Of a DNA stretch of 39,128 nt, positions 3,340-32,598 are shown piece after piece (position 1 is the stretch's first letter; each line of letters starts with the position of its first letter). The position numbers and the translations under genes are program-made. Source of the DNA: a virus (taxonomy: Duplodnaviria; Caudoviricetes); IMG/VR virus record IMGVR_UViG_3300017716_002050, positions 1-39,128 of that record; one strand, 5' to 3'. Below the pieces are notes generated by a model. It saw nothing but the letters and a program-made list of their open reading frames with translations, ran no database searches and had not been told where the DNA came from.

Positions 3340-3516
3340 TCACCCCTTTTCCAAGCCGTGCTTAAGGGCCATCAGGATAGCGCGTTGGGCCGGGCCGCTA
3401 GGGCCTTTTGTGGCGTAGTTCTGTGCGGTCTTCGGGCTGACCATGAGCCAACGGCCCGCAGCTTGTTGCGACAGGCCGAGGGCTGAGAGGGCGGCGCGGT
3501 ATTCGGTGTTGGTCAT
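3340..3516 (-). CDS. XRE-type helix-turn-helix protein (58 aa)
   Basis: MTNTEYRAALSALGLSQQAAGRWLMVSPKTAQNY is a typical HTH. ATGA overlap with the upstream ORF. Confidence 0.8.
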   Translation of the reverse strand: MTNTEYRAALSALGLSQQAAGRWLMVSPKTAQNYATKGPSGPAQRAILMALKHGLEKG

Positions 3517-3695
3517 TTGAAATTCGGGTCCCACTTGGCGCGGAACTCTTCGGCAGTCATTTCGCCGCGCTGGAAACGGCCCATGTCTTGAACCATCGGT
3601 TCAGCGTCCATGCGGGCATTCAAGGCAGCGACAACGCGGGGATCACGGGGAGCGCCCTGCATTATGCGGGCAACGGTGCGGTTCGGCTTGCACAT
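3513..3695 (-). CDS. Hypothetical protein (60 aa)
   Basis: ATG at 3695 (MCKPNRTVAR...) after the leader motif and promoter TTGCAG-N16-TACGTT (3746-3773). Confidence 0.6.
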   Translation of the reverse strand: MCKPNRTVARIMQGAPRDPRVVAALNARMDAEPMVQDMGRFQRGEMTAEEFRAKWDPNFK

Positions 3696-3737
3696 CTGTC
3701 TGTTTCCGTTCCGGCTAGTGCTTGATTGCCCTGCGCC
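3693..3737 (-). repeat. Repeated 5' leader motif, copy 2
   Basis: GGCGCAGGGCAATCAAGCACTAGCCGGAACGGAAACAGACAGATG. Confidence 0.65.
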
Positions 3738-3796
3738 GATGACTGAACGTAGCATCTTTTACGTAGGCTGCAACAGAAAAATGCACTTGGGCCGAT

Positions 3797-3970
3797 TTAT
3801 TTTCGGGACGCCTGAAACTGCCGCATAAACGCTCCCGGCGGGTCGTCATGTTTTCCAGCGATCTGATGTACTGGCATTCCGACTGATAGGCGGTAGGAAA
3901 GCCAATTGTCCCTTGCTGCACGGCTTTTCGGGCAGGCGTAGGACCTAACTGCGTATAGAGGGTCAGTCAT
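3797..3970 (-). CDS. Small hypothetical protein (57 aa)
   Basis: MTDPLYAVRSYACPKSRAARDNWLSYRLSVG...; overlaps the upstream stop and fills the gap to the next promoter. Confidence 0.45.
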   Translation of the reverse strand: MTDPLYAVRSYACPKSRAARDNWLSYRLSVGMPVHQIAGKHDDPPGAFMRQFQASRK

Positions 3971-4298
3971 GCAGAACCGGCCTCAACGCAGCGTTCATGG
4001 CCGCCTCGGACATCCCAACCAAAAGCCTATGGGTGGCCTTCAGTGCCTCTCTCTCCTCGGGAAAATCGCCGTCAAACCCGGCCGCCGCCTCCTGCTTGGC
4101 AGCTTCGCTAAAAACATGGGCGAGTGTCTCGAATGCCCACTGGAAACTGTATGGTCCAAGCACGGACGCCGGAAGTTCGATACAGCCATAAAGCGTTTGT
4201 AGCGCGTCGTGGTGGCCAATCATATTGGACGTGCGTTTAGCTCGATCCTTCATCATCCGATGATACTTAAGCAGGTCGTCAACCGAATCCATATTCAT
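3963..4298 (-). CDS. Hypothetical protein (111 aa)
   Basis: ATG at 4298 in ATGA overlap with the ninB stop; helical sequence. Confidence 0.65.
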   Translation of the reverse strand: MNMDSVDDLLKYHRMMKDRAKRTSNMIGHHDALQTLYGCIELPASVLGPYSFQWAFETLAHVFSEAAKQEAAAGFDGDFPEEREALKATHRLLVGMSEAAMNAALRPVLHD

Positions 4299-7234: not shown

Positions 7235-7566
7235 TCGAACTTCCGTTTCCGGCCCCGGCGTTGTGGCCTAACAAACGCGCTCACTTTATGGCCAAGGCGC
7301 GCGAGGCGAAAAAGCACAGAGCGTGGGCTAGGCTGGCGACGCTTGAGGCCAAAGCCGGTTGCGGAGAGGGCCGGGTGCGGCTGGTGGTGACTATGCACCC
7401 AAAAACCCGCCACCCGATAGACGTGGACAACTGCATAAGCGCCCTCAAGTCCAGTTTTGACGGCGTTGCGGACGCGCTTGGCGTGGATGATCGGCGCTTT
7501 GATTCGCCGCTTGTCCGCTTCGGTGAGCCTATCAAGGGTGGTCTGGTCCGGATCGAGATTGCATGA
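7231..7566 (+). CDS. rusA: RusA-family Holliday junction resolvase
   Basis: IELPFP...WPN and RHPIDVDNCISALKSSFDGVADALGVDDRRF; start GTG at 7231. Confidence 0.88.
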   Translation: MIELPFPAPALWPNKRAHFMAKAREAKKHRAWARLATLEAKAGCGEGRVRLVVTMHPKTRHPIDVDNCISALKSSFDGVADALGVDDRRFDSPLVRFGEPIKGGLVRIEIA

Positions 7567-8408
7567 CTGATCACTTCATCATTGACGGTCCGTGCCTCTG
7601 GTCATTCAGCGGCGGCAGAACCTCGGCCTATATGCTTTGGCGGGCGCTGCAAGCCTATGGGGGGAGGCTGCCGGACGATCACGTCGTTGCCTTCGCAAAC
7701 ACCGGCAAAGAGCGGCCCGAAACCCTCGCCTTCGTCAATGAGTGCGCCTCGCGATGGGGCGTAGACGTTGTGTGGCTGGAGTTTGTCGCCCGGTCGGGAC
7801 CGTCTGCCGGTCGCTTTGAGCGCGTCGGGTTCAACAGCGCCAGTCGCAACGGTGAACCGTTCGCCCGGTTGATTAAAGCCAAGTCCTACGCCCCCAATTC
7901 CGTAATGCGGTTTTGCACCGAGGAAATGAAGGTCAACACAATCCGGCATTTTATCACCGCTGAGTTAGGATGGCCCAAATGGGCGAACGCGGTTGGCCTG
8001 CGACACGATGAAGGCCATCGGGTGATGAAGGCCCTAGCCCGCAATCATGAGGGCAAATCACCGTGGGTTACTAAGGTCCCGCTCGCCAACGCAAAGATAA
8101 CCAAGGCGGAAGTGAACGCGTTTTGGGATGCCCAGCCCTTCGATCTTGGCCTCCGGTCTTACGAAGGAAACTGTGATCTATGCTTTCTTAAAGGGCGAGG
8201 AGCCATCAAGGCCCTGATCCGCGAAAAGCCGGGCTGCGCTGATTGGTGGATTGAACAGGAGCGCGCTAATAAGGGGCGCTTTTCTAAAGAATATTCTTAC
8301 GCCGATCTAGCGCGCGAGGTTGCCCAGCAGCCCCACTTTTTTGATGAGCCACTGGACGACGAACACGACGCGGAATGCGGCCTGTGGTGTCCGGGAGAGG
8401 AAGCATGA
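7563..8408 (+). CDS. PAPS-reductase-family (adenine nucleotide alpha-hydrolase) protein
   Basis: SFSGGRTS PP-loop, FANTGKE, RFCTEEMK, GLRHDE, GNCDLCFLK and a C-terminal CGLWC. Confidence 0.88.
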   Translation: MTDHFIIDGPCLWSFSGGRTSAYMLWRALQAYGGRLPDDHVVAFANTGKERPETLAFVNECASRWGVDVVWLEFVARSGPSAGRFERVGFNSASRNGEPFARLIKAKSYAPNSVMRFCTEEMKVNTIRHFITAELGWPKWANAVGLRHDEGHRVMKALARNHEGKSPWVTKVPLANAKITKAEVNAFWDAQPFDLGLRSYEGNCDLCFLKGRGAIKALIREKPGCADWWIEQERANKGRFSKEYSYADLAREVAQQPHFFDEPLDDEHDAECGLWCPGEEA

Positions 8409-8776
8409 CCGACAAGCCCAAACGCCCCGCCATGTCCAAGGCTCGCCGCCTGCGCTTGTTCGCCCGTGACGGTGGCCTGTGTCACCTGTGCAAGCGGAAG
8501 GTTCTGGCTGGGGAAGACTATGAGCTAGACCACATCATCCCGTGGGCCTTGGCCTTCAACGATGACGACGACAATCTCCGCGTGGCGCACAAGGCTTGCC
8601 ATCGGACGAACAAGACCGGGGACGACGTTTCCCGGATAGCCAAGGCGAAGCGCCAAGGCAGGGAGACAGGCCAACAGGCAAGACGGGCAATCAAAGGCGG
8701 TTCTATCCCGTCCCGTCCGTTTCCAAAGACTAAAACCACATGGCCTAAACGGCCTTTCAAAAGGGGAGAGACATGA
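8405..8776 (+). CDS. HNH endonuclease
   Basis: CHLC...ELDHIIPWAL...DNLRVAHKACHRTNKT; ATG at 8405. Confidence 0.9.
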   Translation: MTDKPKRPAMSKARRLRLFARDGGLCHLCKRKVLAGEDYELDHIIPWALAFNDDDDNLRVAHKACHRTNKTGDDVSRIAKAKRQGRETGQQARRAIKGGSIPSRPFPKTKTTWPKRPFKRGET

Positions 8777-9117
8777 GACAGTCAGTTGCCAACGTGCTGC
8801 GAGAGGTCGCGGAAAAGCACCAAGTCCGAGTTAATGACCTGCTAGGCCCGTGCCGCCAGCGTTACATCGCTTGGCCGCGATTGGAAGCTTATTACCGGGT
8901 CTTTGTCGAATGCCCGCACGTCAGTCTGGCAGAGTGCGGAAGGCGTATGGGAGGCCGTGACCACACCACGATCCTGCACGGCGTTCGAGCGCACTGTGAC
9001 CGCATCGGCCTGACCTACGAAGCCGCCAAGATCATGCGAGACCCGCACGGCTTGCGGCACTCTTTCTCCGCTATCGCTACAAACTACGCTCAATCGTTGG
9101 AGGCTGCCCGTGTCTAA
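8773..9117 (+). CDS. DnaA C-terminal (domain IV)-like HTH protein
   Basis: VLREVAEKHQVRVNDLLGPCRQRYIAWPR...SLAECGRRMGGRDHTTILHGVR. Confidence 0.88.
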   Translation: MRQSVANVLREVAEKHQVRVNDLLGPCRQRYIAWPRLEAYYRVFVECPHVSLAECGRRMGGRDHTTILHGVRAHCDRIGLTYEAAKIMRDPHGLRHSFSAIATNYAQSLEAARV

Positions 9118-9556: not shown

Positions 9557-10468
9557 GTGAGCGTCCCCTTCATGCAGCTTTATGTGGCTGACTATTTGGG
9601 TGACACCCGGCACCTGACAACCGAACAACACGGGGCCTATCTGCTGCTCCTCATGACCATGTGGCGGTCAGGCGGCGTCCTGTCATCCGACCCGGTCAAG
9701 CTCGCCAGAATCGCGGGCTTAAGCCCGTCCCGCTGGCAGAAAATCAGCACCGAAGTTCTGGAGTTTTTCGCGCCTTGCGAGGGCGGATTTACGCAGAAAA
9801 GGCTGGCCGCTGAACTCGCAATTGCCGAAGAAAAATCGGAGAAAAGATCACAGTCGGGGAAAGCCGGTGCGCGGGCTAAGGCGTTGAAATCTAACAAGGT
9901 GGAGTCAGCAAATGCTTCACGATTGCTTAAGCATTCTCCAGAACCAGAACCAGAGTTAAAGAAAGAGAAGACTACGTCTTCTCCAAAGAAAGGCGCTCGC
10001 TTGCCTCCTGATTGGAAGCCATCGGAAGCCGACCTGACATTCGCCGCCAGCCAAAACATGACCTCCGAGGAGACGAGACGTGAAGCCGATCAATTCCGTG
10101 ATTTCTGGATTAGTAAGCCGGGCGCAGGCGGATGCAAACTCGACTGGTCCGCAACATGGCGGACGTGGTGTCGCAACCGGCGCGGCGCTGGCCAAGCTGG
10201 AAAGCCAAGCGCCAGCGGAAACGGATCGAAACCTCTTGGCATGGCTGGAATCCTCGCTGAACGTCGCCGCCAAGCCCCAGTCCCGAATGATGTTTCCGCC
10301 GGAGGGTGGGTACTATCGCCGGACGACGGGCTTTCAGGTGTCTGGATTAACCCCGGAGAACCGGGAGGCGGCGCGGCAAGCGGCCCTGTCAGCCATGACG
10401 CGGCCCCCGCTGGACAGGTGCGAGGAATGGATAGCGGGCCTTCACGCGGTAACGGCTCGCCGTGGTGA
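9557..10468 (+). CDS. Replication initiator, DUF1376/YdaU family (lambda O-like)
   Basis: PFMQLYVADYLGDTRHLTTEQHGAYLLLLMTMW, QKRL, PEPEPE linker, RLPPDWKPS and FRDFW...KLDWSATWRTWCRN. Confidence 0.9.
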   Translation: MSVPFMQLYVADYLGDTRHLTTEQHGAYLLLLMTMWRSGGVLSSDPVKLARIAGLSPSRWQKISTEVLEFFAPCEGGFTQKRLAAELAIAEEKSEKRSQSGKAGARAKALKSNKVESANASRLLKHSPEPEPELKKEKTTSSPKKGARLPPDWKPSEADLTFAASQNMTSEETRREADQFRDFWISKPGAGGCKLDWSATWRTWCRNRRGAGQAGKPSASGNGSKPLGMAGILAERRRQAPVPNDVSAGGWVLSPDDGLSGVWINPGEPGGGAASGPVSHDAAPAGQVRGMDSGPSRGNGSPW

Positions 10469-13050: not shown

Positions 13051-13688
13051 GCGTTTTTGACTGGCCCGAGGAAGAACGAACCCCGCACCCCGCCCCCTCG
13101 GACGCCGCCCCTCCCCTTGGTGTGGAGCAAGGCTGCGTGAACTGTGACGAAAGCATCTGCCGAGACTGTGACCCTTGCGCCGACCCGGACGCGGGGTTCT
13201 GGAAAGAGCCTTTCGCCGCGCGGCTTGACGCTCCTGCGGAAGTGGGGGGACTGGTAGGCCAGCATATCGGCTGGCTCAAGCTGCGCGCTGACCGTCTCGA
13301 TGACAGAGCGGGTCCGGGCGATGCGCTCAACGCCGAGCACGCGCGCGACGTTGCCACCACCCTTGAACGCCTCTCCCGTCAGGTAGAGGGAGCCGAGGCC
13401 GCATTGGTGGAGGCGCGGACGCTGGATCGCGGCTTCTATGATTGGATGATCGAGCGCGACCTTCTCGCCCGAGGCGATGAAGTAGAATGGCCAGACATCG
13501 TTGTTGCCCTCACCGAGCATGAGGTCGAATGCCTCGCCGCCCTCTCCCGTACGGTAGAGGTGCTGCGGGAGAAGGCGAGCGCCATCGCGAAACTGGCAGG
13601 TGACGGGCGGCGAACAGCAAACCTGCCAGCGATCGAACGGCTCGCGGCTGAAATGCTAGCCCTCTCCGCTCAAAAGGATACTGACTAG
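13047..13688 (+). CDS. Hypothetical protein with Cys cluster (213 aa)
   Basis: AGGAGA RBS; CVNCDESICRDCDPC; converges on the spanin stop. Confidence 0.65.
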   Translation: MSVFDWPEEERTPHPAPSDAAPPLGVEQGCVNCDESICRDCDPCADPDAGFWKEPFAARLDAPAEVGGLVGQHIGWLKLRADRLDDRAGPGDALNAEHARDVATTLERLSRQVEGAEAALVEARTLDRGFYDWMIERDLLARGDEVEWPDIVVALTEHEVECLAALSRTVEVLREKASAIAKLAGDGRRTANLPAIERLAAEMLALSAQKDTD

Positions 13689-13963
13689 CGGAACACCTGC
13701 CACCAACGCCGGTTCTGACTCTCTGCAATCTTGATAACGGCCTCTTTCTTGAGGCTGCACTCGCGAAGGTCAGCATCCCCCGCAAGGATAGCGTCGCTCA
13801 AGTCGTCCAGCACGGTCACGTCTGAAACGTCAACCGTCGAACGGCACGGCGCTTTCAGGCTATTCGGGATCGTTATGTTTGCCGCCCCGCCGCACCCGCT
13901 CAAGGCTACGCCCGAAGCCATCAGGGAGACGAGTATTAGCGCCCTCGATCTTTTCAGCCTCAT
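13685..13963 (-). CDS. Outer-membrane spanin (Rz1-like lipoprotein)
   Basis: Lipobox LSGC after a basic/hydrophobic signal; overlaps the i-spanin 3' end. Confidence 0.8.
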   Translation of the reverse strand: MRLKRSRALILVSLMASGVALSGCGGAANITIPNSLKAPCRSTVDVSDVTVLDDLSDAILAGDADLRECSLKKEAVIKIAESQNRRWWQVFR

Positions 13964-14183
13964 TTTGCTTCTCCGCTTGCTCTTGACGAATGACAGGGGT
14001 TTCCGCCGCTACACGGTCTAGCGCCTCACCCGTAGCTTGTGCCACAGACGCCTCCGCACGGGCTTTGCGGGCTTGGCCGCGTTCATGGCAATACGACAGC
14101 GTCAGGCCGAGGAAGATCAGCACCACGATCAGCGCGCCGATCTGGACGATGCGGGTTGCGGCTCTATCCAATCCGAACATCAC
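13860..14183 (-). CDS. Inner-membrane spanin (Rz-like)
   Basis: N-terminal TM (IGALIVVLIFLGLTLSY) plus helical periplasmic domain; follows the endolysin. Confidence 0.8.
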   Translation of the reverse strand: MMFGLDRAATRIVQIGALIVVLIFLGLTLSYCHERGQARKARAEASVAQATGEALDRVAAETPVIRQEQAEKQNEAEKIEGANTRLPDGFGRSLERVRRGGKHNDPE

Positions 14184-14728
14184 GCGCTCCCATACAAAGC
14201 GGCTTCCGCAGCCCTACGCCGCGTCAGACCCTTCATCACTCTGCCGTCGTTTTTGTCCCAACGGCTGAATTGCAGCTTCGCCCCAGCGTAGTCGCCCGCC
14301 TTGTGCATCCGCAACAGGGTGCTGTCATTCAGGGCATTCAGGCCGACATTGTAGGCAAACGAGACAAGCGCATCGAACTGGTTCTGCGTCGTCACAGGGG
14401 CCATTAGGGCGACGGCCTTCTCGAACCGGCCAAGGTCAGCCGCGAACCGCGCATCGGCCTGCTCCTGCGTCCAGACCACGCCCTTGGCGATGCCGGGGCC
14501 AGTGCTGCCCCAGCCGATAGTCCACGGCTTTCCGTCAACCGAGCCGGGATCGGGATAGGCCGTCAGCTTGCAGGACTCAAACGAGTGGATCAGGTCAATC
14601 CCCGCCTTGCTCACCCGTTTGCCCGTAGGAGCCGCTACAGGGGCCATAGCCGCGTTTATGGCGTCCACGTCCGCTTGTGTCAGCGGAGCGCCCTTGATAG
14701 CCCTTACAGCGTCAAATAGAGCCTTCAT
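14180..14728 (-). CDS. Endolysin, GH24 lysozyme
   Basis: GIDLIHSFESCKLTAYPD...WTIGWGST, QNQFDALVSFAYNVG, GLTRRRAAEAALY. Confidence 0.96.
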   Translation of the reverse strand: MKALFDAVRAIKGAPLTQADVDAINAAMAPVAAPTGKRVSKAGIDLIHSFESCKLTAYPDPGSVDGKPWTIGWGSTGPGIAKGVVWTQEQADARFAADLGRFEKAVALMAPVTTQNQFDALVSFAYNVGLNALNDSTLLRMHKAGDYAGAKLQFSRWDKNDGRVMKGLTRRRAAEAALYGSA

Positions 14729-14943
14729 AGGTTATCCGTCGTGGTTTGAGTGGGAGGGTCGCCTGCGGTCGTGGTCGTTACCTTGCCAGACCCTCGCGCC
14801 ATCCATCCACCGATAGCCCCTACAGCCGCAGCAGCAACCGTCTCGCCGTCGCCGTGGTTGATAGCCACCACCCCGATCATGCCGAGGGCTACAAGGCCAG
14901 CAATGGCCGTTATGTCGATGTGCCAATCATTCATGTCGGTCAC
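14725..14943 (-). CDS. Putative holin (2 TM)
   Basis: 72 aa with two hydrophobic segments and a polar tail; ATGA-coupled to the endolysin. Possible dual start (GTG 14943, ATG 14934). Confidence 0.6.
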   Translation of the reverse strand: MTDMNDWHIDITAIAGLVALGMIGVVAINHGDGETVAAAAVGAIGGWMARGSGKVTTTTAGDPPTQTTTDNL

Positions 14944-14960
14944 ACCCCTTCACCCGCTTC

Positions 14961-15449
14961 TCACTGGCGACCATACGACACAGCAGACAACCGCCGCCGA
15001 TCAGAAACCCAGCGGCCAATATAATCCAGACCACAGCGCGCTCCAACGGTGCCGAGGGTTGCAAGTATGATGCAGAAGACAGCATTTAGAGCCACCGCGT
15101 AGTTGTAAAGGATTCCGGTCGTTAGGTCGCCGTCTCGCCACATGAAGATGATCGGAAGGTGCATCGCAAGCTGCCCGACCAGACAAGCGACGATGACCAC
15201 CTTCCAGCCCTCCCGGCTCTTAAGCCAAGAGTCGTAGATCATCAGCGCCAGCACGAAATCCAGAAACGGGGCCACCACCGTTGCGCTTAAAAAGCTGAAC
15301 TTAAGCACCATGATGTTACCCGCTGCCATGTTCAGCGCGACCAGCGACGCTGCGCCCAGAAGGTCGGAGTTTTGCTTCGGGGAAATAACGAAGGCGGCGA
15401 CCGAAAGCGCCAGAACCAGCCCCATCGCGATGGCGTACCAGATAAGCAT
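14961..15449 (-). CDS. Polytopic membrane protein (~5 TM, 162 aa)
   Basis: ATG at 15449 with GGAGG RBS. Five hydrophobic segments carrying polar residues (LD, QLAMH, YAVALN) and a basic C-tail. Confidence 0.8.
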   Translation of the reverse strand: MLIWYAIAMGLVLALSVAAFVISPKQNSDLLGAASLVALNMAAGNIMVLKFSFLSATVVAPFLDFVLALMIYDSWLKSREGWKVVIVACLVGQLAMHLPIIFMWRDGDLTTGILYNYAVALNAVFCIILATLGTVGARCGLDYIGRWVSDRRRLSAVSYGRQ

Positions 15450-15453
15450 TAGC

Positions 15454-16119
15454 TCAATCCTCCGGGTTTTTGTGGACGCCAAGCCCGCAGACGTAGCAGT
15501 CCTGACCCAACTTAAATGACCATTTCACCCCGACGAAACTTCCCCGGACTCCGGTCAGGACGGAATAGACCTTTTCGTCAATCTCAACCACCTCTCCCGA
15601 GGTGTAAGCCTTTTCGTCGTTAGCCGCAAAAATTGCAGCGACCTCAGCAGGCCAGACATCCCCATCCGTGCGCCCGTTATAGGCCGAGGCCACGCCGCCC
15701 AGATACTTGTCCGCGTAGACCTGACTAACTTGGACCATCCGAAACCGTCCCGCACCCTCACGCCGCTTAATCCACATGAGGCGCGGCATCGTCAGGATGA
15801 ATGTTTCCAGTTCCTGCACAGTCACGCTCTGCCGATGGACCATCTCTTGAACCATCGACAGCGTGATTTGCTCAAACTTGAGGCCGGTCGCGGCGGACAG
15901 GACGGCCCTGATCTGCCCGAGTTCCATTTCGGTTTGATGCGCCCGCTCGCGCAGGGTGTCGATCACTTCGCCGGTCTTCGACGCCTCGATCTTCCTTGCG
16001 CGCCAGTTGGCCGTTACCCATGCGACCGCGCCAGCCGCCGCCGTGGAGGCGATAGGCCAAAGGGCCGTTACCTGTGCGACCAGATCGGGCGCGGGCGGAA
16101 TATCCTCCGGCACGATCAA
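15454..16119 (-). CDS. Single-TM, coiled-coil, PAS-domain protein
   Basis: TM ALWPIASTAAAGAVAWVTANW followed by RARK. C-terminal FILTMPRLMWIK...GRF..VSQVY...GRTDGDVWPAEVAAIFAANDEKAYTSGEVVEIDE...FVGVKW fits the PAS_4 pattern. Confidence 0.78.
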   Translation of the reverse strand: MIVPEDIPPAPDLVAQVTALWPIASTAAAGAVAWVTANWRARKIEASKTGEVIDTLRERAHQTEMELGQIRAVLSAATGLKFEQITLSMVQEMVHRQSVTVQELETFILTMPRLMWIKRREGAGRFRMVQVSQVYADKYLGGVASAYNGRTDGDVWPAEVAAIFAANDEKAYTSGEVVEIDEKVYSVLTGVRGSFVGVKWSFKLGQDCYVCGLGVHKNPED

Positions 16120-16355
16120 GGCTTGATCGGCTGGTCGGGGTCGTCGTTAGGCGGCTTGTCCGTGCCGCCAGAGAAGGCCACGATGTTATCCCCGTCCCGC
16201 GATGCGACGTAGGCTTTCTGTGCCTTGTCTAGCCGGGCGTGGAGGAGCGCGTGATGCTCCTCCACCAGCTTGAGCGCGCGGCGGGTTGCCTTGACGGCTT
16301 CCTCCGACTTCATCAAGGCCCGCCCAATGGCGTCGATGTGGTCTTGAGGGGTCAT
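16116..16355 (-). CDS. Small helical protein with SGGTDKPP tail (79 aa)
   Basis: ATG at 16355 in ATGA overlap with the tailspike stop; its own stop overlaps the TTG of the PAS gene. Confidence 0.75.
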   Translation of the reverse strand: MTPQDHIDAIGRALMKSEEAVKATRRALKLVEEHHALLHARLDKAQKAYVASRDGDNIVAFSGGTDKPPNDDPDQPIKP

Positions 16356-19300
16356 TTGGCCACCCATCCTGTGTTCCCGGTTCCGCTTTCCTTAACATAA
16401 AATGACGTGCCCGCACCCCCATCCGTACGCTGGAAAGTGGAGCCGATGCCGCCCGTAACCGCGCCCTCTGGCGTCCCGGTCCCGATGCCTTGGATGACGG
16501 TTGCGCTGCGGTAGATCGTGCCGGTGTAAAGAAGCGATCCAGCCGCGTCCGCCGTGGTCCAGCCGCGATACGGCCCGTTGTCGTAGAAGCCTGCGAACGA
16601 GTTGTTCGTGTAAGGCGACGTGCCAGTGATGGACCCGGTGACGTTCGTCAGCGCGCTACAGCCGGTGAAGACGTTGCCGGTCGATGTCGTGGTGTTGTAG
16701 CCGTAGCCTTGACCGCCGATGAAACCTGTTGTCGTGCCGTTGCCCGAGCGACAGCCGGTGAACAGGCTGTTCGTTCCGGTGTCCAAGTTCCAGCCGTTAT
16801 AGGTGCCGTTCTGGATCGTGCCGTCCACATAACTGTTATCGACCGCCGTACAGGCCGCAAAGCTGCTGCGGGTGGTGTTGCCGATCAAGCTGAACCCGTG
16901 TTCCGTATTGCGAACCGCGACGCAGCTTGTGACCGTGAACTGCTGGCAGTTGTTGAACACGAAGCCCGCGTTTCCGTTCTCGACCGAGATCAGACCGGAA
17001 ATGACGATTTGGCGGGCCTCTTGGAACAAAAAGCCGTTAAGCGTGTTGCCCTGCGCCACACAGTTAGCGACGGCGCTTTCGCGGTCCACATAGGTTGCAG
17101 CCCCATAGGAACCACCAAGCGTCCCCTTGATCTGGAAGCCCGCCGCCGTGTTGTTATAGGCCGTGCAGTCAGCCAGAACAGACGAAATGAACCCGTCGTA
17201 GGTGTCAAAGCCATCTTGGGCGTTGCCCTCAGAGTGGCAGCCGATGATCTTGCAGAAGGTCGATCCGCCGCCGGTCTTGAAGCCGTCCTGATTGTCGGAG
17301 TTGTAGGCTTCGCAGTTGATGAACTCGCAGGCCGTCGCAAAGTCCATGAAGAAACCATAGGACCGCGAGACGTATGAGACGCACTCGATAGCTTTGTTCC
17401 GTAGGTTGGTGGTCGTCGGCGGGACCGCACCCGCATCGCGGGCAAACACAAACCCTTGCGTCAGGTTGGTCTGGTCGCAGCGATAGACCGTACAATCCAC
17501 GCAATCGAGGAAGTTAAAGCCGTTGTTGCCAGAGGTCCGCAGCGTAGATGCCTCAAGCGACAGGTCCGCAATGAAGACGTTGCTCTTTGCGTTGACGTTT
17601 ATAACGTCCGTCGTGGTGTCCAGCCCCGTGAAATACAGGATCGTACGCCCCCGGCCCGCGCCGACAATCCGGGTGTTGTCGAGAATGTTGAAGACGGGCG
17701 AGGCGTCCGAGATGGTCAGTTGGCCAGCCGGAAGAATGAGCGTCTTGCCCGCCGCGTTGGCCGCATCAAGCGCAAGGTTGATGGCCGCGAGGTTGGACGG
17801 ATTGGACGCGCTGACGCCGTAGCTTTCCGCATAGACCGCATCCAGAGCGGAGGTCATGGCCGTCCAGCCGGTGTTTGTGCCTGCGCCGGACTCCTTGACG
17901 TAGAGCGCCGTTCCGGGGCCACCGTTGGTGCGCGTGTACAGGTCGGCTACGCTGCCAGTATCAGACCCTTCCGGAGTTCCTGCACCTGTAATGATCCGAG
18001 CGGCAGTAGCCAAGCTAGGCGCAATGCCTGCTCGCCGCCAGCCGCCGCCCGATCCGTCGTAAACCACCGTGCCTGTCTGACCGGGCCGAATGGTCATGAT
18101 GGTCGAAAGCGCCGCGTTGCGGATCAGCCACGAGCCGACGCCAGAACCGGACGCCATGAAGGTAAACGTGGCCCCGTCCGGCAAGCCGGTTTCTGACAGG
18201 GTGATGTTGGTGGTCGCTGCAATAGAACCCGACAGGCGGATGGTCGGAGCGTAGTCCAGATACGTGACGGTGAAATCGACCGCCGTGGAAACCGAGCGGT
18301 TGCCGACGTTTTCCGCCTTCACCCACACCGTGCCGTTGGAATAGACCCAGCCCGCCGGGGAAATGTCAGAGACGTTCCACCACTCGCCCTGACGTTCCGT
18401 AGCGTCCAGCGTCGCCAGTTGCGCCTTGGTGATGGTGTTCTCACCACGCGGACGGATGCCTGCGGGCTGTTGCAGGCGATATTGCGTGACTGCGCCCTGA
18501 CACCAGAAGTCGTCTTTGTTGAAGTTGGAGTTGATCGCCGTCTCAGCAATCTCGACACCGCGCGCCGTCTTCTTCCACCGCCCGAACTGATAGGCCGCGC
18601 CGGTAATGGTCGTCAGGGCCGTGGCCGAAAGGGTAATCGACTGTGCATTGTTGACCGAGGCAATCTCCCCGATCAGCACATCACCGTTGGTAAAGATAGC
18701 GTCCCCGGCGACCAGAACATCCTCGAAGTTGTACCCGTACTTGAAGTTGGCCGTCGTCACGACGCCAGACGCTTCGACGTTCGCGACAAGGGTCAGTGTG
18801 TCAGCGTCGGTAATGGACGCGATCTGACCGATAGACACGTCTCCAGTCGTGAAGAGGTGCTGGCCGACGACGTATTGGTTAGCGAAATCCGTTCCTTGCC
18901 CGCTCACCGTCTTGGAGCCAAGCGTGGTCGTGATCGTCCCGCCAAGGTCCGCAGCCGGAGCCGGGATGGTCATGGCCGTGCCCGACACCGTCGCCAGACC
19001 GCCGCCGTCCGTGTAGAAATAGGCGTCAGGCGTCCGTTGAGCGTAAGAGCTACCGATCTGGAAGCCCGTGCCCGCCGACACCTCAATCTTCGCGCCGGGC
19101 GAAACCAGAACAAGCGTATCAAGGTCCGTCACGCTGGCGACGCGGCCAACGTAAGCCCCCGCCGCCGTGCAGATGGTGTCCCCGGCTTCAACCTCGTTGA
19201 CGAAGTCCGTTCCGGTGCCAGATACCGACGTGGTGTTGATCGTGACCGCGATAGTGCCCGTGCCCGCCGTGACCGTCTCAAGAGAACCGCCCGAGAGGGT

Positions 19301-20926
19301 AGCCGTCTGCGAGGCATGGTCCGCAGCCGAGGGCGTAAGGGTCGTGGTCGTCTCTTGAACGTCCAGCCAATAGGTCTTAGCCGAGATGGCCGTGACCTGA
19401 CCCAAAAGCTCCTGATCGTCATTGAACAGGAAGTCACCGACGCTCAGGTCATCAAAGCAGTTGATGTCCTGACCACGCAGAACCGTGTCCCGGTTTACAA
19501 TCGTGTTCGTGCCCGAGGTCGCCGTGATGGTGCCGAGGCCCACGATGTACTCATCAGAGGCAAACGTAGCAGGACCGAAACCCCAGCCCACGCCTTCCGC
19601 GATGACTACCGCTTCCTCATTCGGGTTGGAGATGCTTTCCCCGTCCTCATCACCCGGAAGCGGACGCCCGTTGCCACGGTTCGGACCAATGCCGGAGCCG
19701 ATGCCGACGCCGGAGTTCTCCGACACTTGGTCTTTGGAGTTGAACAGAACCGCAGGGCCGAGAATGTCGCGGAACGAATAGTTGTTGACGAAACAGGCGT
19801 CCGTGTCCGTCAGGCGGATCAGGCGGAACATTCCCTCGCCGTACACATAGTCAATCGTGATATTGGCCGCGCCATTGCCCAGACGAACCGTCGCGTACTG
19901 CGTCGGATAGGGCATTCCCTCTTCCGTCCAGCGGTTCCAAACGCCGTACACGCGCCCGACGTACAGACGGCCTTCCGCCTCCAAAACCGAGACGTTGAAG
20001 CACGACTTGGTCATGTTGGTGGAGACAATCTCCCCGATGTAGCCGCCGCCCGTCCCTGCCGTGGTTGCGTCCCCACCGCCCGTGATGCCGTGGCCTTGCA
20101 CATCGACAGTCTCGATCCGGCCAATGTTCCACGAGTCCACCGCCTTGACGCCGGGCTGGGTTGCATCATCGAGGAACCGGAGGGCCTTGTAACGATAGCG
20201 GACGTTGGTTCCCTCAATGGACCCAGCCGCTTGCGCCTTGTGGCCAAAGTTAGAGGTGATGCCCGCGCAATCAAACTCGATGTTTTCGAAATAGACGTTA
20301 GCGCCGTTGGTCTGAGTGACGAACGCGCGGGCCTCCGAAGATGAGGTGTAGGTTCCGCCCGACACCGCGCGCCATGCCGGGTCCACAAGCGTCAGGCTGG
20401 TTTGGCTTTCGATGCTTTCGATCTTGCCGATGTACTCGCCATCTTCGTTTTGAAGGTTGTGGCCTACCGTCAGGTTCGTTTGGAACAGGGCAAGCCCAGA
20501 ACCCGTAACCGTCGTGCTGTTCAGTTCGCAGGTGATGGTTCCCGGACGGGCCGTCAGGGGCAGTTTGAACGTCGCCCAGCCGTCACGGCAGACAAGCCCG
20601 ACCGTACCCGCACCAGCCAAGCCAATCACGCCGTTGGCGTTGTAAGCCCCGTCAATCGTATAGGTGCCAGCGGGGACCAGCACCCACTTGCCCGCCGCCA
20701 CACCGGCAGCGATGGCCTCGCGGAAAGCGTCGCCGTCCGTGCCATAGTCTTCAAGGTCAATGAAGCCGTCAGCGTTGACAATCTTGGTCCGCATGTAGTC
20801 CGCCAGAACATCGGCGGTGATGCTCTTGAGAGGGCCGGGCGAGCGGTAGGAAGCCAAAAGGTCGCTATCAACCACCGTCGTTTGGCTGGTCAGTTGCGCG
20901 TATGTCTTGCGGGGCAGTTCGGCCAT
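16352..20926 (-). CDS. Tailspike/depolymerase with two right-handed beta-helix regions (1524 aa)
   Basis: Two pectate-lyase-3-like entries (LEDYGTDGDAFREAI...VPAGTY and AESYGVSAS...AINLAL...LILPAG), parallel beta-helix repeats and a duplicated GTPEG...YVKESG motif. Confidence 0.88.
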   Translation of the reverse strand: MAELPRKTYAQLTSQTTVVDSDLLASYRSPGPLKSITADVLADYMRTKIVNADGFIDLEDYGTDGDAFREAIAAGVAAGKWVLVPAGTYTIDGAYNANGVIGLAGAGTVGLVCRDGWATFKLPLTARPGTITCELNSTTVTGSGLALFQTNLTVGHNLQNEDGEYIGKIESIESQTSLTLVDPAWRAVSGGTYTSSSEARAFVTQTNGANVYFENIEFDCAGITSNFGHKAQAAGSIEGTNVRYRYKALRFLDDATQPGVKAVDSWNIGRIETVDVQGHGITGGGDATTAGTGGGYIGEIVSTNMTKSCFNVSVLEAEGRLYVGRVYGVWNRWTEEGMPYPTQYATVRLGNGAANITIDYVYGEGMFRLIRLTDTDACFVNNYSFRDILGPAVLFNSKDQVSENSGVGIGSGIGPNRGNGRPLPGDEDGESISNPNEEAVVIAEGVGWGFGPATFASDEYIVGLGTITATSGTNTIVNRDTVLRGQDINCFDDLSVGDFLFNDDQELLGQVTAISAKTYWLDVQETTTTLTPSAADHASQTATLSGGSLETVTAGTGTIAVTINTTSVSGTGTDFVNEVEAGDTICTAAGAYVGRVASVTDLDTLVLVSPGAKIEVSAGTGFQIGSSYAQRTPDAYFYTDGGGLATVSGTAMTIPAPAADLGGTITTTLGSKTVSGQGTDFANQYVVGQHLFTTGDVSIGQIASITDADTLTLVANVEASGVVTTANFKYGYNFEDVLVAGDAIFTNGDVLIGEIASVNNAQSITLSATALTTITGAAYQFGRWKKTARGVEIAETAINSNFNKDDFWCQGAVTQYRLQQPAGIRPRGENTITKAQLATLDATERQGEWWNVSDISPAGWVYSNGTVWVKAENVGNRSVSTAVDFTVTYLDYAPTIRLSGSIAATTNITLSETGLPDGATFTFMASGSGVGSWLIRNAALSTIMTIRPGQTGTVVYDGSGGGWRRAGIAPSLATAARIITGAGTPEGSDTGSVADLYTRTNGGPGTALYVKESGAGTNTGWTAMTSALDAVYAESYGVSASNPSNLAAINLALDAANAAGKTLILPAGQLTISDASPVFNILDNTRIVGAGRGRTILYFTGLDTTTDVINVNAKSNVFIADLSLEASTLRTSGNNGFNFLDCVDCTVYRCDQTNLTQGFVFARDAGAVPPTTTNLRNKAIECVSYVSRSYGFFMDFATACEFINCEAYNSDNQDGFKTGGGSTFCKIIGCHSEGNAQDGFDTYDGFISSVLADCTAYNNTAAGFQIKGTLGGSYGAATYVDRESAVANCVAQGNTLNGFLFQEARQIVISGLISVENGNAGFVFNNCQQFTVTSCVAVRNTEHGFSLIGNTTRSSFAACTAVDNSYVDGTIQNGTYNGWNLDTGTNSLFTGCRSGNGTTTGFIGGQGYGYNTTTSTGNVFTGCSALTNVTGSITGTSPYTNNSFAGFYDNGPYRGWTTADAAGSLLYTGTIYRSATVIQGIGTGTPEGAVTGGIGSTFQRTDGGAGTSFYVKESGTGNTGWVAK

Positions 20927-22113: not shown

Positions 22114-24948
22114 CTAGTCCTCCTGTCCTGCCGAAAGGGCCACGCCTGCACGGACGCGATTAGCCCCCCGAGGTCGATTGATTGCGCGGGTCAGGCGCGC
22201 GTTAAACTCTTCGGAGTTGGCCATGAGAAGATCAGCCAACGTCTCCGCATTGCGGCGGGCGGTCCAATCATCAATCCCCCGCCCGACCCGGCCAAAAACG
22301 CCAGTCGGATTGGTAATGGTTTGAGCCGCGCCGGTTGCGAGATTGCCGTTTCGCATCTGCTGTTGAAGCTCTTGTATAAACGCAGTCTGCGAGCCGCCTT
22401 TGTGCCGCTGGCCGGTGGCCATCAGAACCTCAACCAGATTGGCCATCGGGTCGGAGCCGCGAGCGGGAGCCGCGTTCGCGCTAAGAGGCGGGAACGCCAT
22501 GTTGGGATCGGGGCGGTTCACAACGTCCAGCGCGCCCATGACCGTCCGGCGTTGTTCCGGATTGCCAAACACACGGGCCGCAAAATCAGCCCCACCAAAC
22601 TGGTTAGGGCCGCTTGGCGTGTCTTGCATGGATTCCATCGCCTGCCGCGACAGATGCTGCCGAACCAGAGGGCCTCCGACAGTCGGATCAATCTCGCCCA
22701 TCAGTTCAAGCGCGCGAGCGGTTTCCTGCGCTTGACCCTCAAAGGGCTTATCGGGGAACAAGCGTCCCGTCATGCCAGCAAGGTTCGGGGCGGCTTCATT
22801 CGCATCCGCAAGCGCGCCAATCGGTCCGGCTTTGAGCGGGTCGATAAACGCTTCATTGACCCCGCGTACCGTGTCGTGCGCCATGCGCCAATCTGGCGAC
22901 GCTTCCGATGCCAAAGCGTCCGCCAACGCCCGGGCTTCGCGCCGCTGAGACGCCCGCGTCATAGACCCGCCAACACGCATAGAATTAGGCGCGGCTTCGT
23001 CGGCCATCGTGTCGAGTTGCTTCACAACCTCATTGATGACGTTGAGGTCGTTATCAGGCGTGGGAGCGGCAAACGGATCAAAAGAAGATCGGATTTGATC
23101 GGGCGAAAACGCCACCACCTCTTCTGCATCAGGACGAACAATGACGCTGTCATACCCCTCGGATTGAAGCCGGTTGCGCCATCCCGAAAGGTCGTCACGA
23201 TAAGCGTAAGCGTCGTTATAGAATTCTGATGCCGTGTCATAGCGTCGTGGATTTTGCGCCCTAACCCTTAGCGGCATTACATACGGGTCAGCCGGAACGC
23301 GGTCAGGTCGCCAGCCGCCCCTTGATGCAATGGTCGCGTATTCGTTTGCCAAATCCGGGCGAGCGCTGGAAAAGAATCCCAACTCCCCTTCAGATTGCCG
23401 GGTATTGGAGCCTAGTCGAGCAGGATCAAAGGAATCAAACGCCGTTCCGTCCCGAGTGGCCGTCCCGTGATAAGTTTCCAGCCCGAACCCTTGCTGCTGC
23501 GCTCGCAGCATCCGCACGTCTTGTTCCATCGGCGGGGCGCGATTGAGAAGCGGTGCAAGTTCCTCATCATCCCGCACCGCGCGAAGGGCGGCGGCAAACG
23601 ACGGGTTCTCTGTCAGTTGTCCAAACTGTTCAGGCGGCAGCGACTGGCCCGGCAGGCGGTCATAGAACTGCCCCGCATCCTCATTCGCACGACGGCGAAG
23701 GGTGTCCAGAACGCCACCCGCCGCTTGTTGAACGCGAGGCGCAAGGGCGGACGGCTCAACGCTAGGGCCTATTTGGTCGAGTTGTGCGCCAACAGCGCCG
23801 CGCACTTGTTCCGGAAGGGCGGCAAAGTAGCTTTGCAGGCGCGGAGACGAACCCTCCACCGCCCGTTGCAGTTGTCCTAGTCCCGTTCCGCCGCCCGTGA
23901 CTTGCTGAACGGCGTTCGCGTTAGTCAAGTTGATGCCAAAGGAATCTGCATCCCGGCGAAGAAGAGCCGCCATCTCAAGCTGTTGAGGCGTGACGCCTTG
24001 AGCCGCATTGCGGAGCGAAATATCAGCGCCGCCGCGAACCGTGTTGACACCACCAACACCCAAGCCGCCGAAGAAACCACCGGCCATGCGGGCATAGCCT
24101 TCCGCCGCCGTGTCGCGTTCGCCGCCTTGCAGCATCCGGGCAAGTTGGCCTGCCCCCTCCGATGCTCCGGCAGGGACGAGCCACGACGCTAGTTTGGTGC
24201 CCGTGCTGCCCGGAACGAGCGCGCCGGGCGCAAACTCACCAACCGTCCGGGACCATTCCCCCAACGGGGTCTGCGGCTGATAATAGTCGTATCCGATATG
24301 GTTACGGATGCTTTCGTTAATCTGTTCGCCCGAAGGCCCGATGACACCCAGTCCGGGGAGATAGTCTCCCTGACGCAGGCCGATCATTTGGCCCAAGGTT
24401 CCCTGCGCCCCTAAAGTGCCCGTCAGCCCCTCGACAACGCCGGTCGGGAGCGACTTGGCCATGTCTTCCGGGATCGTGGATTGCGCCTCTAGGAACAAGC
24501 CGGGGGCAATCTGTTCCGCACCTTCGCCGCCAGCATTCGGACGCGCATCGGCCATCAGGCGACGGACTTCACCGTTCGGCAGTTTGACGTACCAGCCGCC
24601 ATTCAGATAGGCGCGGTCCTCCGGAGGAAGTGTAGCAAGGTTGATTGGGTCGCGTTGCGTTCCTTGCGCGCCAAACACCGCCGCATTGGCCGTCGCTTGA
24701 TCCGGGTCGATTTCATGCACCGGAGGCGCAGCGGGAACCGCGTTAGGGCGCATCGTCGGATAGATGCCGTTGTCACCCGGCAGGAGTTCCGGCTGAAACG
24801 GTGCGTTTTCGTCCTCTTGCGGCTGGGGAGCCGCAGCCGGGGCCTGACGACGGTTGCGGTTCGTCGGAATAGGCGCGGCAATATCGGCGTAAGGGTCGCC
24901 CGTCTGAATAGGGAGCGCAATATCGGCGTAAGGGTCTTGCTGTCTCAT
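22114..24948 (-). CDS. Internal virion/DNA ejection protein (944 aa) with inserted ART-PolyVal-like domain
   Basis: Third gene of the ejection cluster; DPYADI repeats and Gly/Ala hydrophobic stretches. Insert YHGT..FDSFD..GFF..ANEYA..GYDSVIV..VAFSPDQIRS at ~23070-23490. Confidence 0.75.
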   Translation of the reverse strand: MRQQDPYADIALPIQTGDPYADIAAPIPTNRNRRQAPAAAPQPQEDENAPFQPELLPGDNGIYPTMRPNAVPAAPPVHEIDPDQATANAAVFGAQGTQRDPINLATLPPEDRAYLNGGWYVKLPNGEVRRLMADARPNAGGEGAEQIAPGLFLEAQSTIPEDMAKSLPTGVVEGLTGTLGAQGTLGQMIGLRQGDYLPGLGVIGPSGEQINESIRNHIGYDYYQPQTPLGEWSRTVGEFAPGALVPGSTGTKLASWLVPAGASEGAGQLARMLQGGERDTAAEGYARMAGGFFGGLGVGGVNTVRGGADISLRNAAQGVTPQQLEMAALLRRDADSFGINLTNANAVQQVTGGGTGLGQLQRAVEGSSPRLQSYFAALPEQVRGAVGAQLDQIGPSVEPSALAPRVQQAAGGVLDTLRRRANEDAGQFYDRLPGQSLPPEQFGQLTENPSFAAALRAVRDDEELAPLLNRAPPMEQDVRMLRAQQQGFGLETYHGTATRDGTAFDSFDPARLGSNTRQSEGELGFFSSARPDLANEYATIASRGGWRPDRVPADPYVMPLRVRAQNPRRYDTASEFYNDAYAYRDDLSGWRNRLQSEGYDSVIVRPDAEEVVAFSPDQIRSSFDPFAAPTPDNDLNVINEVVKQLDTMADEAAPNSMRVGGSMTRASQRREARALADALASEASPDWRMAHDTVRGVNEAFIDPLKAGPIGALADANEAAPNLAGMTGRLFPDKPFEGQAQETARALELMGEIDPTVGGPLVRQHLSRQAMESMQDTPSGPNQFGGADFAARVFGNPEQRRTVMGALDVVNRPDPNMAFPPLSANAAPARGSDPMANLVEVLMATGQRHKGGSQTAFIQELQQQMRNGNLATGAAQTITNPTGVFGRVGRGIDDWTARRNAETLADLLMANSEEFNARLTRAINRPRGANRVRAGVALSAGQED

Positions 24949-31942: not shown

Positions 31943-32521
31943 CTATGTCCTCCGATACACAGTGTCGTTTCCTACGCGGGTCACGCGCTCATAGCCGGGC
32001 AAGTCCGCCTTTGGACCTAGCCCTTTCTCTTCGAGCACTATGATAGGCGAAAACTTCTCGATTGTCGCCCTCGCGCCTTTAATCGCGTCCGCCTCGGCTC
32101 CCTCAATGTCCAGCCAGAGCAAATCGCAGGCGTCTAGGTTCAGGCCGTCAATGGTGTGAACAGGGATAGCCGTACCCGGCAGCGTCTTGTGAGAACCGCA
32201 GTTGTCCGTGTCGATGCGGAGGATGCCGCAAGTTCCCGGTTCAGCCCCTAGCGCCGCGTTGAACTTCGTAATGGATGAATCAATGATGTTGCGACGCAGG
32301 CAATCATAGTTGTCCCCGTCCGGTTCAAACGTGATGACCCGATCAAACCAAAGGGCCAGCGCGATAGGATAAACGCCGACGTTACCGCCAGCTTGGACGC
32401 AGACGCGGCGCTCCTTCACCAGCGGAACCACGACGGTCATTGCTACGGCGCACTCATCCACCACCACCGCACGGCAGCGCACGTCGAAATTAGGCCACCA
32501 AAGACCGTCGATCTGTTTCAT
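31943..32521 (-). CDS. FkbM-family SAM-dependent methyltransferase
   Basis: VQAGGNVGVY, TFEP, NAALG, TIDGL, LWLDIEGAE, PIIVLE; start ATG at 32521 (MKQIDGLWWP). Confidence 0.9.
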   Translation of the reverse strand: MKQIDGLWWPNFDVRCRAVVVDECAVAMTVVVPLVKERRVCVQAGGNVGVYPIALALWFDRVITFEPDGDNYDCLRRNIIDSSITKFNAALGAEPGTCGILRIDTDNCGSHKTLPGTAIPVHTIDGLNLDACDLLWLDIEGAEADAIKGARATIEKFSPIIVLEEKGLGPKADLPGYERVTRVGNDTVYRRT

Positions 32522-32598
32522 CGGCGCGTGTTCACAAAGATGCCGACGACAAGCAGCCAGAGCAGCCAAATGGCGAGAAGTCCGATTGCGAGCATCAT
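32518..32598 (-). CDS. Membrane micropeptide (26 aa)
   Basis: MMLAIGLLAIWLLWLLVVGIFVNTRR; GGGAGG RBS and ATGA overlaps with both the GT stop and the FkbM start. Confidence 0.7.
   Translation of the reverse strand: MMLAIGLLAIWLLWLLVVGIFVNTRR

Follow-up and report, generated by a model that had tools for sequence, protein, structure and literature searches.

Signal control of lysis timing is known from T4-type lysis inhibition and a few similar cases, and the PAS-dependent sensing known from phages, that of VqmA, acts through transcription. The domain carried by the T4 holin T is GAF-like. T is a single-pass protein with N-in, C-out topology, regulated with the antiholins RI and RIII, and its globular C-terminal domain is periplasmic (PMC11413866). 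The class IIIB holin gp142 of phage phiKZ is accompanied by a cytoplasmic regulator, gp143; the text of PMC12894885 places the setting of lysis timing at the cytoplasmic domain, describes that domain of the holin as largely dispensable for triggering, and names no PAS or GAF domain for either protein. LysF1b of the mycobacteriophages Girr and NormanBulbieJr is a tested holin with one transmembrane (TM) segment and N-out, C-in topology that needs a multi-TM neighbour, the 2-TM protein LysF1a, to time lysis (PMC13056207). VqmA of Vibrio cholerae and of phage VP882 is a soluble PAS-HTH transcription factor, in which F67 and K101 are required for DPO binding (bioRxiv 10.1101/2019.12.19.881847). 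In listings from a mostly open-access literature, no paper was found that describes a role for a PAS protein in phage lysis. New in the locus described here are the exchange of a PAS gene with a 62-aa gene, its co-transfer with a subtype of a five-TM (5-TM) gene, and the presence of the plain allele in a cultured phage.

The window, i.e., the whole stretch of DNA analysed (39,128 bases), is a whole phage genome with 60% G+C, a 123-nt terminal repeat and a podophage-type gene set, and is classed as 100% complete. Its nearest cultured major capsid protein, 59% identical, belongs to a Bradyrhizobium phage. Since the only cultured phages with relatives of its 5-TM gene infect Caulobacter, we infer a Caulobacter-like host. 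Scans of GTDB genomes with the PAS family and the 79-aa family gave 0 matches and thus no prophage copy pointing to a host.

All genes of the locus are read from the minus strand. The tailspike gene upstream (16352-20926; beta-helix, Pfam Beta_helix E=8.5e-11), whose place is taken by different tail proteins in the relatives L283-L290, is followed by three genes. These encode a 79-aa helical protein, a core gene of the phage clade (16116-16355; homologues in alignment A6), an optional TM-coiled coil-PAS protein (15454-16113, with TTG at 16119 as a possible start; model, fold matches and alignment) and a 5-TM membrane protein of no named family and of a PAS-linked subtype (14961-15449; alignment A5, model and trees). 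Behind a 17-nt gap (14944-14960), where relatives have a 62-aa gene for a coiled-coil protein with a C-terminal TM segment, come a 72-aa membrane protein with one or two hydrophobic segments (14725-14943), a GH24 endolysin (14180-14728; Pfam Phage_lysozyme E=4.7e-40), an inner-membrane spanin (13860-14183; PHROG Rz-like spanin E=7e-4) and an outer-membrane spanin (13685-13963; PHROG spanin E=1.8e-5, Pfam LysC E=1.2e-4). An earlier note, made from the sequence alone, had placed three open reading frames between the tailspike and the lysis genes; all three were found there on the minus strand, together with the ATGA overlap between the tailspike and 79-aa genes and the 4-nt gap ahead of the 5-TM gene. 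The TTGA overlap with which that note began the PAS gene is probably a wrong start. The codon in question is CTG in L015, and a GTG two codons past it is kept in the window, L014 and L015, which makes GTG at 16113 the likely start, giving a protein of 219 aa and a 2-nt gap to the 79-aa gene. The small holin postulated at 14725-14943 is indeed a membrane gene, but it had no Pfam, NCBIfam or named PHROG match and is a holin candidate by position only; among relatives it is swapped independently for other small membrane genes, with a match in 3 of the 40 5-TM loci described below. The three genes are real and constrained by purifying selection, with dN/dS values of 0.03-0.21 in seven pairwise comparisons (PAS gene about 0.03-0.21, three pairs; 5-TM gene 0.10, one pair; 79-aa gene 0.08-0.12, three pairs). 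A promoter scan found none, and the only terminator-like site lies inside the 5-TM gene, fewer such sites than expected by chance.

The claim that the middle gene encodes a PAS domain was confirmed by an AlphaFold model and by structure matches in the PDB, using the Foldseek check that had been proposed. Residues 111-220 form a block with pLDDT 93-97; the N-terminal part is poorly modelled (pLDDT 38-54, residues 1-80), including a long helix of low confidence. Foldseek gave 148 PDB matches at E<=0.001, and the top ones among the matches listed are PAS/LOV domains. With VIA-align, Z scores reached 14.1, and DvhD, HTR-like PAS and phage VqmA were tied at the top (VqmA, PDB 7dwm: Z 13.3, rmsd 2.9, 116 residues aligned). 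Pfam PAS_4 stayed under its cut-off for the window protein (E=0.0013; 19.4 vs. a gathering score of 23.1 bits) and reached the gathering score in the relatives L001, L009, L028 and L034. A search of PDB sequences with the close PAS family found no relative. LOV photosensors contain the flavin-adduct motif N-C-R. As this motif is missing from 29 of the 29 members of alignment A1, a LOV-type light sensor was rejected.

VqmA and the PAS protein share a phage-borne PAS domain of the same subtype. The pocket positions F164, D168 and K199 are retained in 83-96% of 134 family members. In weak alignments, F164 and K199 lie opposite F67 and K101 of VqmA, K199 coinciding with the Lys of the F-x-K motif of phage VqmA, and a sister profile pairs Y, F, D and E with Y36, F67, D71 and D85 of VqmA in a match that is likewise weak (E=0.22). 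These positions suggest a pocket of a small-molecule-binding subtype; DPO itself is not implied, as the positions may be general to the subtype. Unlike VqmA, the PAS protein is membrane-anchored, has no DNA-binding part and has Gly at the position of VqmA F99. A VqmA-type C-terminal HTH of the LuxR type was looked for and rejected, since the protein terminates with the PAS domain. More generally, no signalling output (kinase, cyclase, receiver or DNA-binding) was found in the PAS protein or the adjoining cassette, and no kinase, cyclase, response regulator/receiver, GGDEF or EAL domain in 171 ORFs (23 + 148) of the complete genome, the 148-ORF part excluding ORFs mostly nested in large genes. 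The DNA-binding-type matches in the window, a DnaA-type HTH (8773-9117) and a weak DnaT match in a replication protein (9557-10468), both lie in the replication region.

The anchor of the PAS protein is weakly hydrophobic (mean best 19-residue Kyte-Doolittle value 1.37 in 29 relatives). Basic residues are concentrated after it, on average 3.6 compared to 0.3 before it in 29 close relatives, and this predicts an N-out, C-in topology with a cytoplasmic PAS domain. The N-in, C-out topology of T4-like class IIIA holins is thus not predicted for this protein. The analogy to T4 drawn in the earlier note is therefore a loose one: both proteins are single-pass and have a globular C-terminal domain that serves, or might serve, as a regulatory input, but this domain is periplasmic in holin T and predicted to be cytoplasmic here. 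The PAS protein resembles LysF1b (PMC13056207) in its single N-terminal TM segment, predicted N-out, C-in topology, basic residues after the TM segment, long and charged helix on the presumed cytoplasmic side, and multi-TM neighbour. This likeness is one of layout, given the weak anchor of the PAS protein, and LysF1b differs in its length of 124 aa, its lack of a PAS domain and its Gram-positive host. The layout of phiKZ gp142/gp143 is like that of the 62-aa gene and of a split form in which the PAS gene and a coiled-coil/TM gene are separate (see below). Homology to gp142/gp143 was rejected, because scores with the PAS, 62-aa and 5-TM profiles were near zero. No member of the 5-TM, 62-aa or PAS family reached the cut-off of a holin family; among the fold matches of the PAS protein, a class III holin appears at rank 45, a weak hit (E=0.32).

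The PAS protein has 30 relatives with 54-84% identity, and a profile search yielded 755 proteins at E<=0.001. Among 149 newly listed ones, 103 are shorter than 300 aa and 56 have an N-terminal hydrophobic segment by a loose threshold; the ESM Atlas, used as a lead only, contains virus-only clusters of such a shape, one of them with 1,142 members. The family is present in podo-, T4-like, crAss-like and jumbo phages, and its cultured carriers include the Chryseobacterium jumbo phages MA9V-1/2, Brevundimonas jumbo phages and Cellulophaga phage phi19:1. With the family profile, 52 loci were collected, of which 26 were kept and 26 dropped as contig repeats, near-identical copies or too short; DNA motif scans for additional loci contributed few new ones. 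An endolysin or spanin gene was found within 2.5 kb on the same strand in 16 of the 26 loci (15/25 without the window); among 123 loci from motif scans that were 5 kb or longer and lacked a PAS gene, a lysis gene was that close in 4. This comparison is biased in favour of the PAS loci since the lysis seeds were taken from these loci themselves. Pfam or PHROGs confirmed most of the lysis genes, and that of L043, a lysozyme, was assigned only by eye. The neighbouring endolysins are of GH19, GH24-type, GH108 and amidase types. The ten loci with no lysis enzyme within 2.5 kb comprise L015, which is cut off, L009 and L042 with a small holin-like neighbour, L022 and L074 with a coiled-coil/TM neighbour, and five that lie among virion genes (L027, L028, L033, L040 and L041). 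No separate small holin gene is found between the PAS gene, with or without a 5-TM gene, and the endolysin in L001 and L021.

In T4-like genomes (L009 5732-6681, L032 1369-3737, L192 1849-3830), the TM-PAS gene directly precedes the primase gene and follows either a small membrane gene or spanins together with multi-TM genes; this may be an unrecognised lysis locus. The small membrane gene preceding it is 47% identical to a gene between endolysin and spanins of Caulobacter phage RW.

Our preferred reading, to which we assign a probability of roughly 0.45, is that the PAS protein crosses the membrane once, carries a sensor and, as a partner of membrane lysis proteins, shifts the timing of lysis. 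The PAS gene is optional; in its place, relatives encode a membrane anchor with a plain coiled coil. Its predicted cytoplasmic domain would bind a small host molecule, and the coiled coil would relay the state of this domain and thereby shift the moment of hole formation. The partner would be the 5-TM protein or, in phages lacking it, a small 2-TM protein, and the module as a whole would act in lysis. The same lysis linkage and topology could belong to a LysF1b-like holin or co-holin whose PAS domain is ligand-free and drives dimerisation or a fixed triggering time. Relatives that manage without any PAS domain are compatible with such a holin, as is the largely dispensable cytoplasmic domain of the phiKZ holin (PMC12894885). 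But inward polar and aromatic positions would then hardly be kept so widely among 134 diverse members, and with dN/dS values down to 0.03 the conservation exceeds what a spacer needs. We therefore regard a ligand-free holin as rather unlikely.

We used the 79-aa protein as a query and obtained eight close relatives (81-90% identical); a ninth match was spurious. In all eight, the order is tailspike, 79-aa, 5-TM, 62-aa, small membrane gene, endolysin and spanins, with no PAS gene, and the PAS profile found nothing in their records, five of which are at least 90% complete, while two controls matched. The 79-aa, 5-TM and 62-aa genes are fixed in L283-L290 (4900-5800), which freely exchange their small membrane gene and their endolysin (GH24, GH108-like or peptidase-like). 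The 5-TM alignment, used as a query, matched 40 viral loci, seven of them on the same contigs; the 79-aa gene is present in 39 of them, and the 62-aa gene follows directly behind the 5-TM gene in 37. Two of the remaining loci end at the contig edge, and one, on the L001 contig, has a PAS gene and no 62-aa gene. Thus, the 62-aa gene occurs without a PAS gene in 37 of the 38 uncut loci, and the reverse holds for the 38th. The window and L014 also carry the PAS gene without a 62-aa gene, which in the window is absent genome-wide. The PAS gene and the 62-aa anchor gene are never found in company. The locus counts overstate independence because the loci form one clade and include duplicates, and the swap may be a single event in two lineages.

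This distribution does not agree with the three genes forming one sensory cassette, as had been proposed, since the full set was found in no locus other than those of the window, L014 and L015. In 39 loci, the 79-aa and 5-TM genes stand without a PAS gene. Conversely, PAS genes without 79-aa or 5-TM neighbours are found in L004, L005, L006, L009, L016 and L021, and a complete T4-like genome (G011) has a PAS gene and neither of the other two. The gene swaps point to the 5-TM protein, rather than the product of 14725-14943, as the probable partner. That the three genes are a dedicated sensor unit acting on a holin at 14725-14943 in the manner of RI/RIII, which would explain their tight coupling in the window, L014 and L015, is very improbable given that the parts occur separately in most loci, that the small holin candidate is exchanged independently, and that L001 combines PAS and 5-TM genes without such a small holin gene. 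What stands of the proposed lysis control is a PAS protein without output that is linked with lysis genes across many unrelated phages and has a predicted topology suiting membrane lysis proteins; the three-gene cassette does not.

The 5-TM protein of the window is only 36-45% identical to those of the relatives, compared to up to 90% for the flanking 79-aa gene and 82% in DNA for the lysozyme gene. In phylogenetic trees, it groups with the PAS-linked 5-TM protein of L001 (SH-aLRT 99; support 99-100 in three trees), and a topology holding it with its own clade was rejected (p-AU 0.017); in this tree L001 forms a long branch, and P0036-P0039 were included without gene contexts. L001 belongs to an unrelated phage of 87 kb with 44% G+C, in which PAS and 5-TM genes lie directly before a GH19 endolysin, and its record (79% complete) has no 79-aa gene. 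On the simplest reading, PAS and 5-TM genes came in as one block replacing the 5-TM and 62-aa genes, which would let the 5-TM protein keep one single-pass coiled-coil partner. Anchor-less PAS forms have a coiled-coil/C-terminal-TM gene directly after them in all four flanked loci (L022, L043, L074 and L233), the one in L233 being weakly holin/hemolysin-like, and this arrangement would fit the same logic in a split form. In Brevundimonas jumbo phages (L022 4941-5871), the anchor-less PAS gene coupled to its coiled-coil/TM gene follows a tRNA cluster. Pfam XhlA gave 16.4 and 15.1 bits for two of four scanned 62-aa proteins of the relatives, below the gathering score of 34.7 bits. A complex prediction for the PAS and 5-TM proteins scored 0.01 against a mark of 0.32 and was counted neither way.

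The 79-aa protein has 64 homologues, and its gene is always upstream of the 5-TM gene; it seems to go with the 5-TM protein rather than with the PAS protein. A role as a tailspike-specific chaperone was rejected, because it is 81-90% identical among relatives while their tailspikes change. In alignment A6, the motif V-x-F-S-G-G-x-x-K-P is invariant and followed by a short Pro/Asp-rich tail. The 5-TM protein has five hydrophobic segments (determined on the L014 copy, 98% identical) and invariant polar residues in or near its helices (D29, D64, Q93, H97 and N122 in alignment A5); its model has a pLDDT of 84, and all matches to its fold in the PDB were generic helical bundles (best Z 11.2). Searches of plasmids for relatives of the 5-TM protein yielded nothing significant, and the phiCbK protein K4JPZ4, which resembles the 5-TM fold, was not located in the 40 kb around the phiCbK lysis cassette.

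These features raise the possibility of a phage-to-phage signal that delays lysis: the 79-aa protein would be the precursor of a secreted peptide, processed or sensed by the 5-TM protein, with the 62-aa or PAS partner signalling to the holin and the PAS form adding an internal input. The helical leader, Gly-Gly and Pro/Asp tail would suit a precursor, as would the motif F-S-G-G-x-x-K-P, which lies close to the C terminus of all 28 aligned sequences and is kept in the Caulobacter phages CcrBL9 and RW though the leader has diverged. So would the fixed 79-aa/5-TM adjacency in three phage types, the invariant polar residues and a weak match of one 5-TM protein to the receptor domain 7TMR-DISM_7TM (E=0.023). 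A small precursor and a multi-TM partner are reportedly encoded by the agrBDC genes of the Clostridioides phage phiCDHM1, which could serve as a model for the 79-aa/5-TM pair. Presumably, pairs of small helical and multi-TM genes also lie beside LuxR-type regulators on Caulobacter and Sphingomonas chromosomes. However, unlike agrBDC, the pair has no family match and no kinase: neither protein matched Pfam or NCBIfam, nor any peptide-precursor, AgrB or receptor family at cut-off. AgrB uses a catalytic His/Cys pair; His97 is invariant in the 5-TM family, and no Cys is. Moreover, no exporter or peptidase is encoded nearby, the leader is 80-90% conserved within the clade, which suits a folded protein, and L001, in a record 79% complete, has the 5-TM gene without a 79-aa gene. 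Altogether, a peptide signal appears improbable to us.

In the cultured Caulobacter phage RW, a 79-aa-like gene, a 5-TM gene and a coiled-coil/TM gene are likewise arranged in this order (gp079c-gp077c, L334 3726-4665), with three further genes and 2 kb between them and the endolysin downstream. The 5-TM match has E=5e-20, the other two are weak. All three are annotated as hypothetical, and the endolysin, small membrane gene and spanins of RW (L334 6676-7858) are unannotated. CcrBL9, a cultured jumbo phage with a distant copy of the 79-aa gene, carries a 79-aa/5-TM pair (gp274c-gp273c, L336 4899-5627) about 65 kb from its endolysin and with no third gene; for gp273c, 5142 (161 aa) is the likely start instead of the annotated 5220. 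In Brevundimonas phage Bambus, also a cultured jumbo phage, about 40 kb separate the endolysin from a PAS gene paired with a coiled-coil/TM gene. In L310, an HNH endonuclease gene (3504-4004, plus strand) occupies the 79-aa/5-TM junction, where the PAS gene sits in the window, and ends with a copy of the last residues of the 79-aa protein, preserving the overlap with the 5-TM start. This junction therefore also admits unrelated genes, and RW, CcrBL9 and L310 indicate that the 79-aa/5-TM pair is able to live apart from lysis genes. Such distances, the HNH insertion and the five PAS loci that lie among virion genes and show no lysis gene would be expected of a membrane module that merely uses the late operon and has nothing to do with hole formation, for example in superinfection exclusion or by pairing with PAS sensor kinases of the host. 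This we consider unlikely, since, in unrelated phages, PAS genes are linked to spanins and to endolysins of four unrelated types, and those of T4-like genomes follow spanins or the RW-like small membrane gene. Distance, too, need not mean another function: LysA2b of phage D29 is said to be a lysis regulator unlinked to lysis genes.

If our preferred reading of a sensor-bearing lysis partner is true, a PAS domain wired to membrane lysis proteins would constitute a cytoplasmic, post-translational input into lysis, and a putative signal inside the host would likely adjust burst timing wherever the PAS form takes the place of the plain anchor. The natural allele pair of 62-aa anchor and PAS form, together with RW as a cultured carrier of the plain form that grows on a laboratory host, makes this idea directly testable. 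A more far-reaching version, which we regard as a long shot, is that Caulobacter-like phages possess a modular, transcription-free lysis timer, in which a peptide-like 79-aa protein and a 5-TM receptor would act through a coiled-coil transducer on the holin; some phages would swap in a VqmA-type PAS pocket, so that bursting would follow a quorum or metabolic molecule of the host.

Further genes of the window were noted outside the lysis region. A gene in the replication region (7563-8408, plus strand) encodes a PAPS-reductase domain. A probable ejection protein of 944 aa (22114-24948, minus strand) contains the ADP-ribosyltransferase domain of polyvalent proteins (Pfam E=8.7e-10). Within the head gene block, an FkbM-type methyltransferase and a glycosyltransferase/MptE-like fusion (31943-34028, minus strand) hint at possible virion glycosylation.
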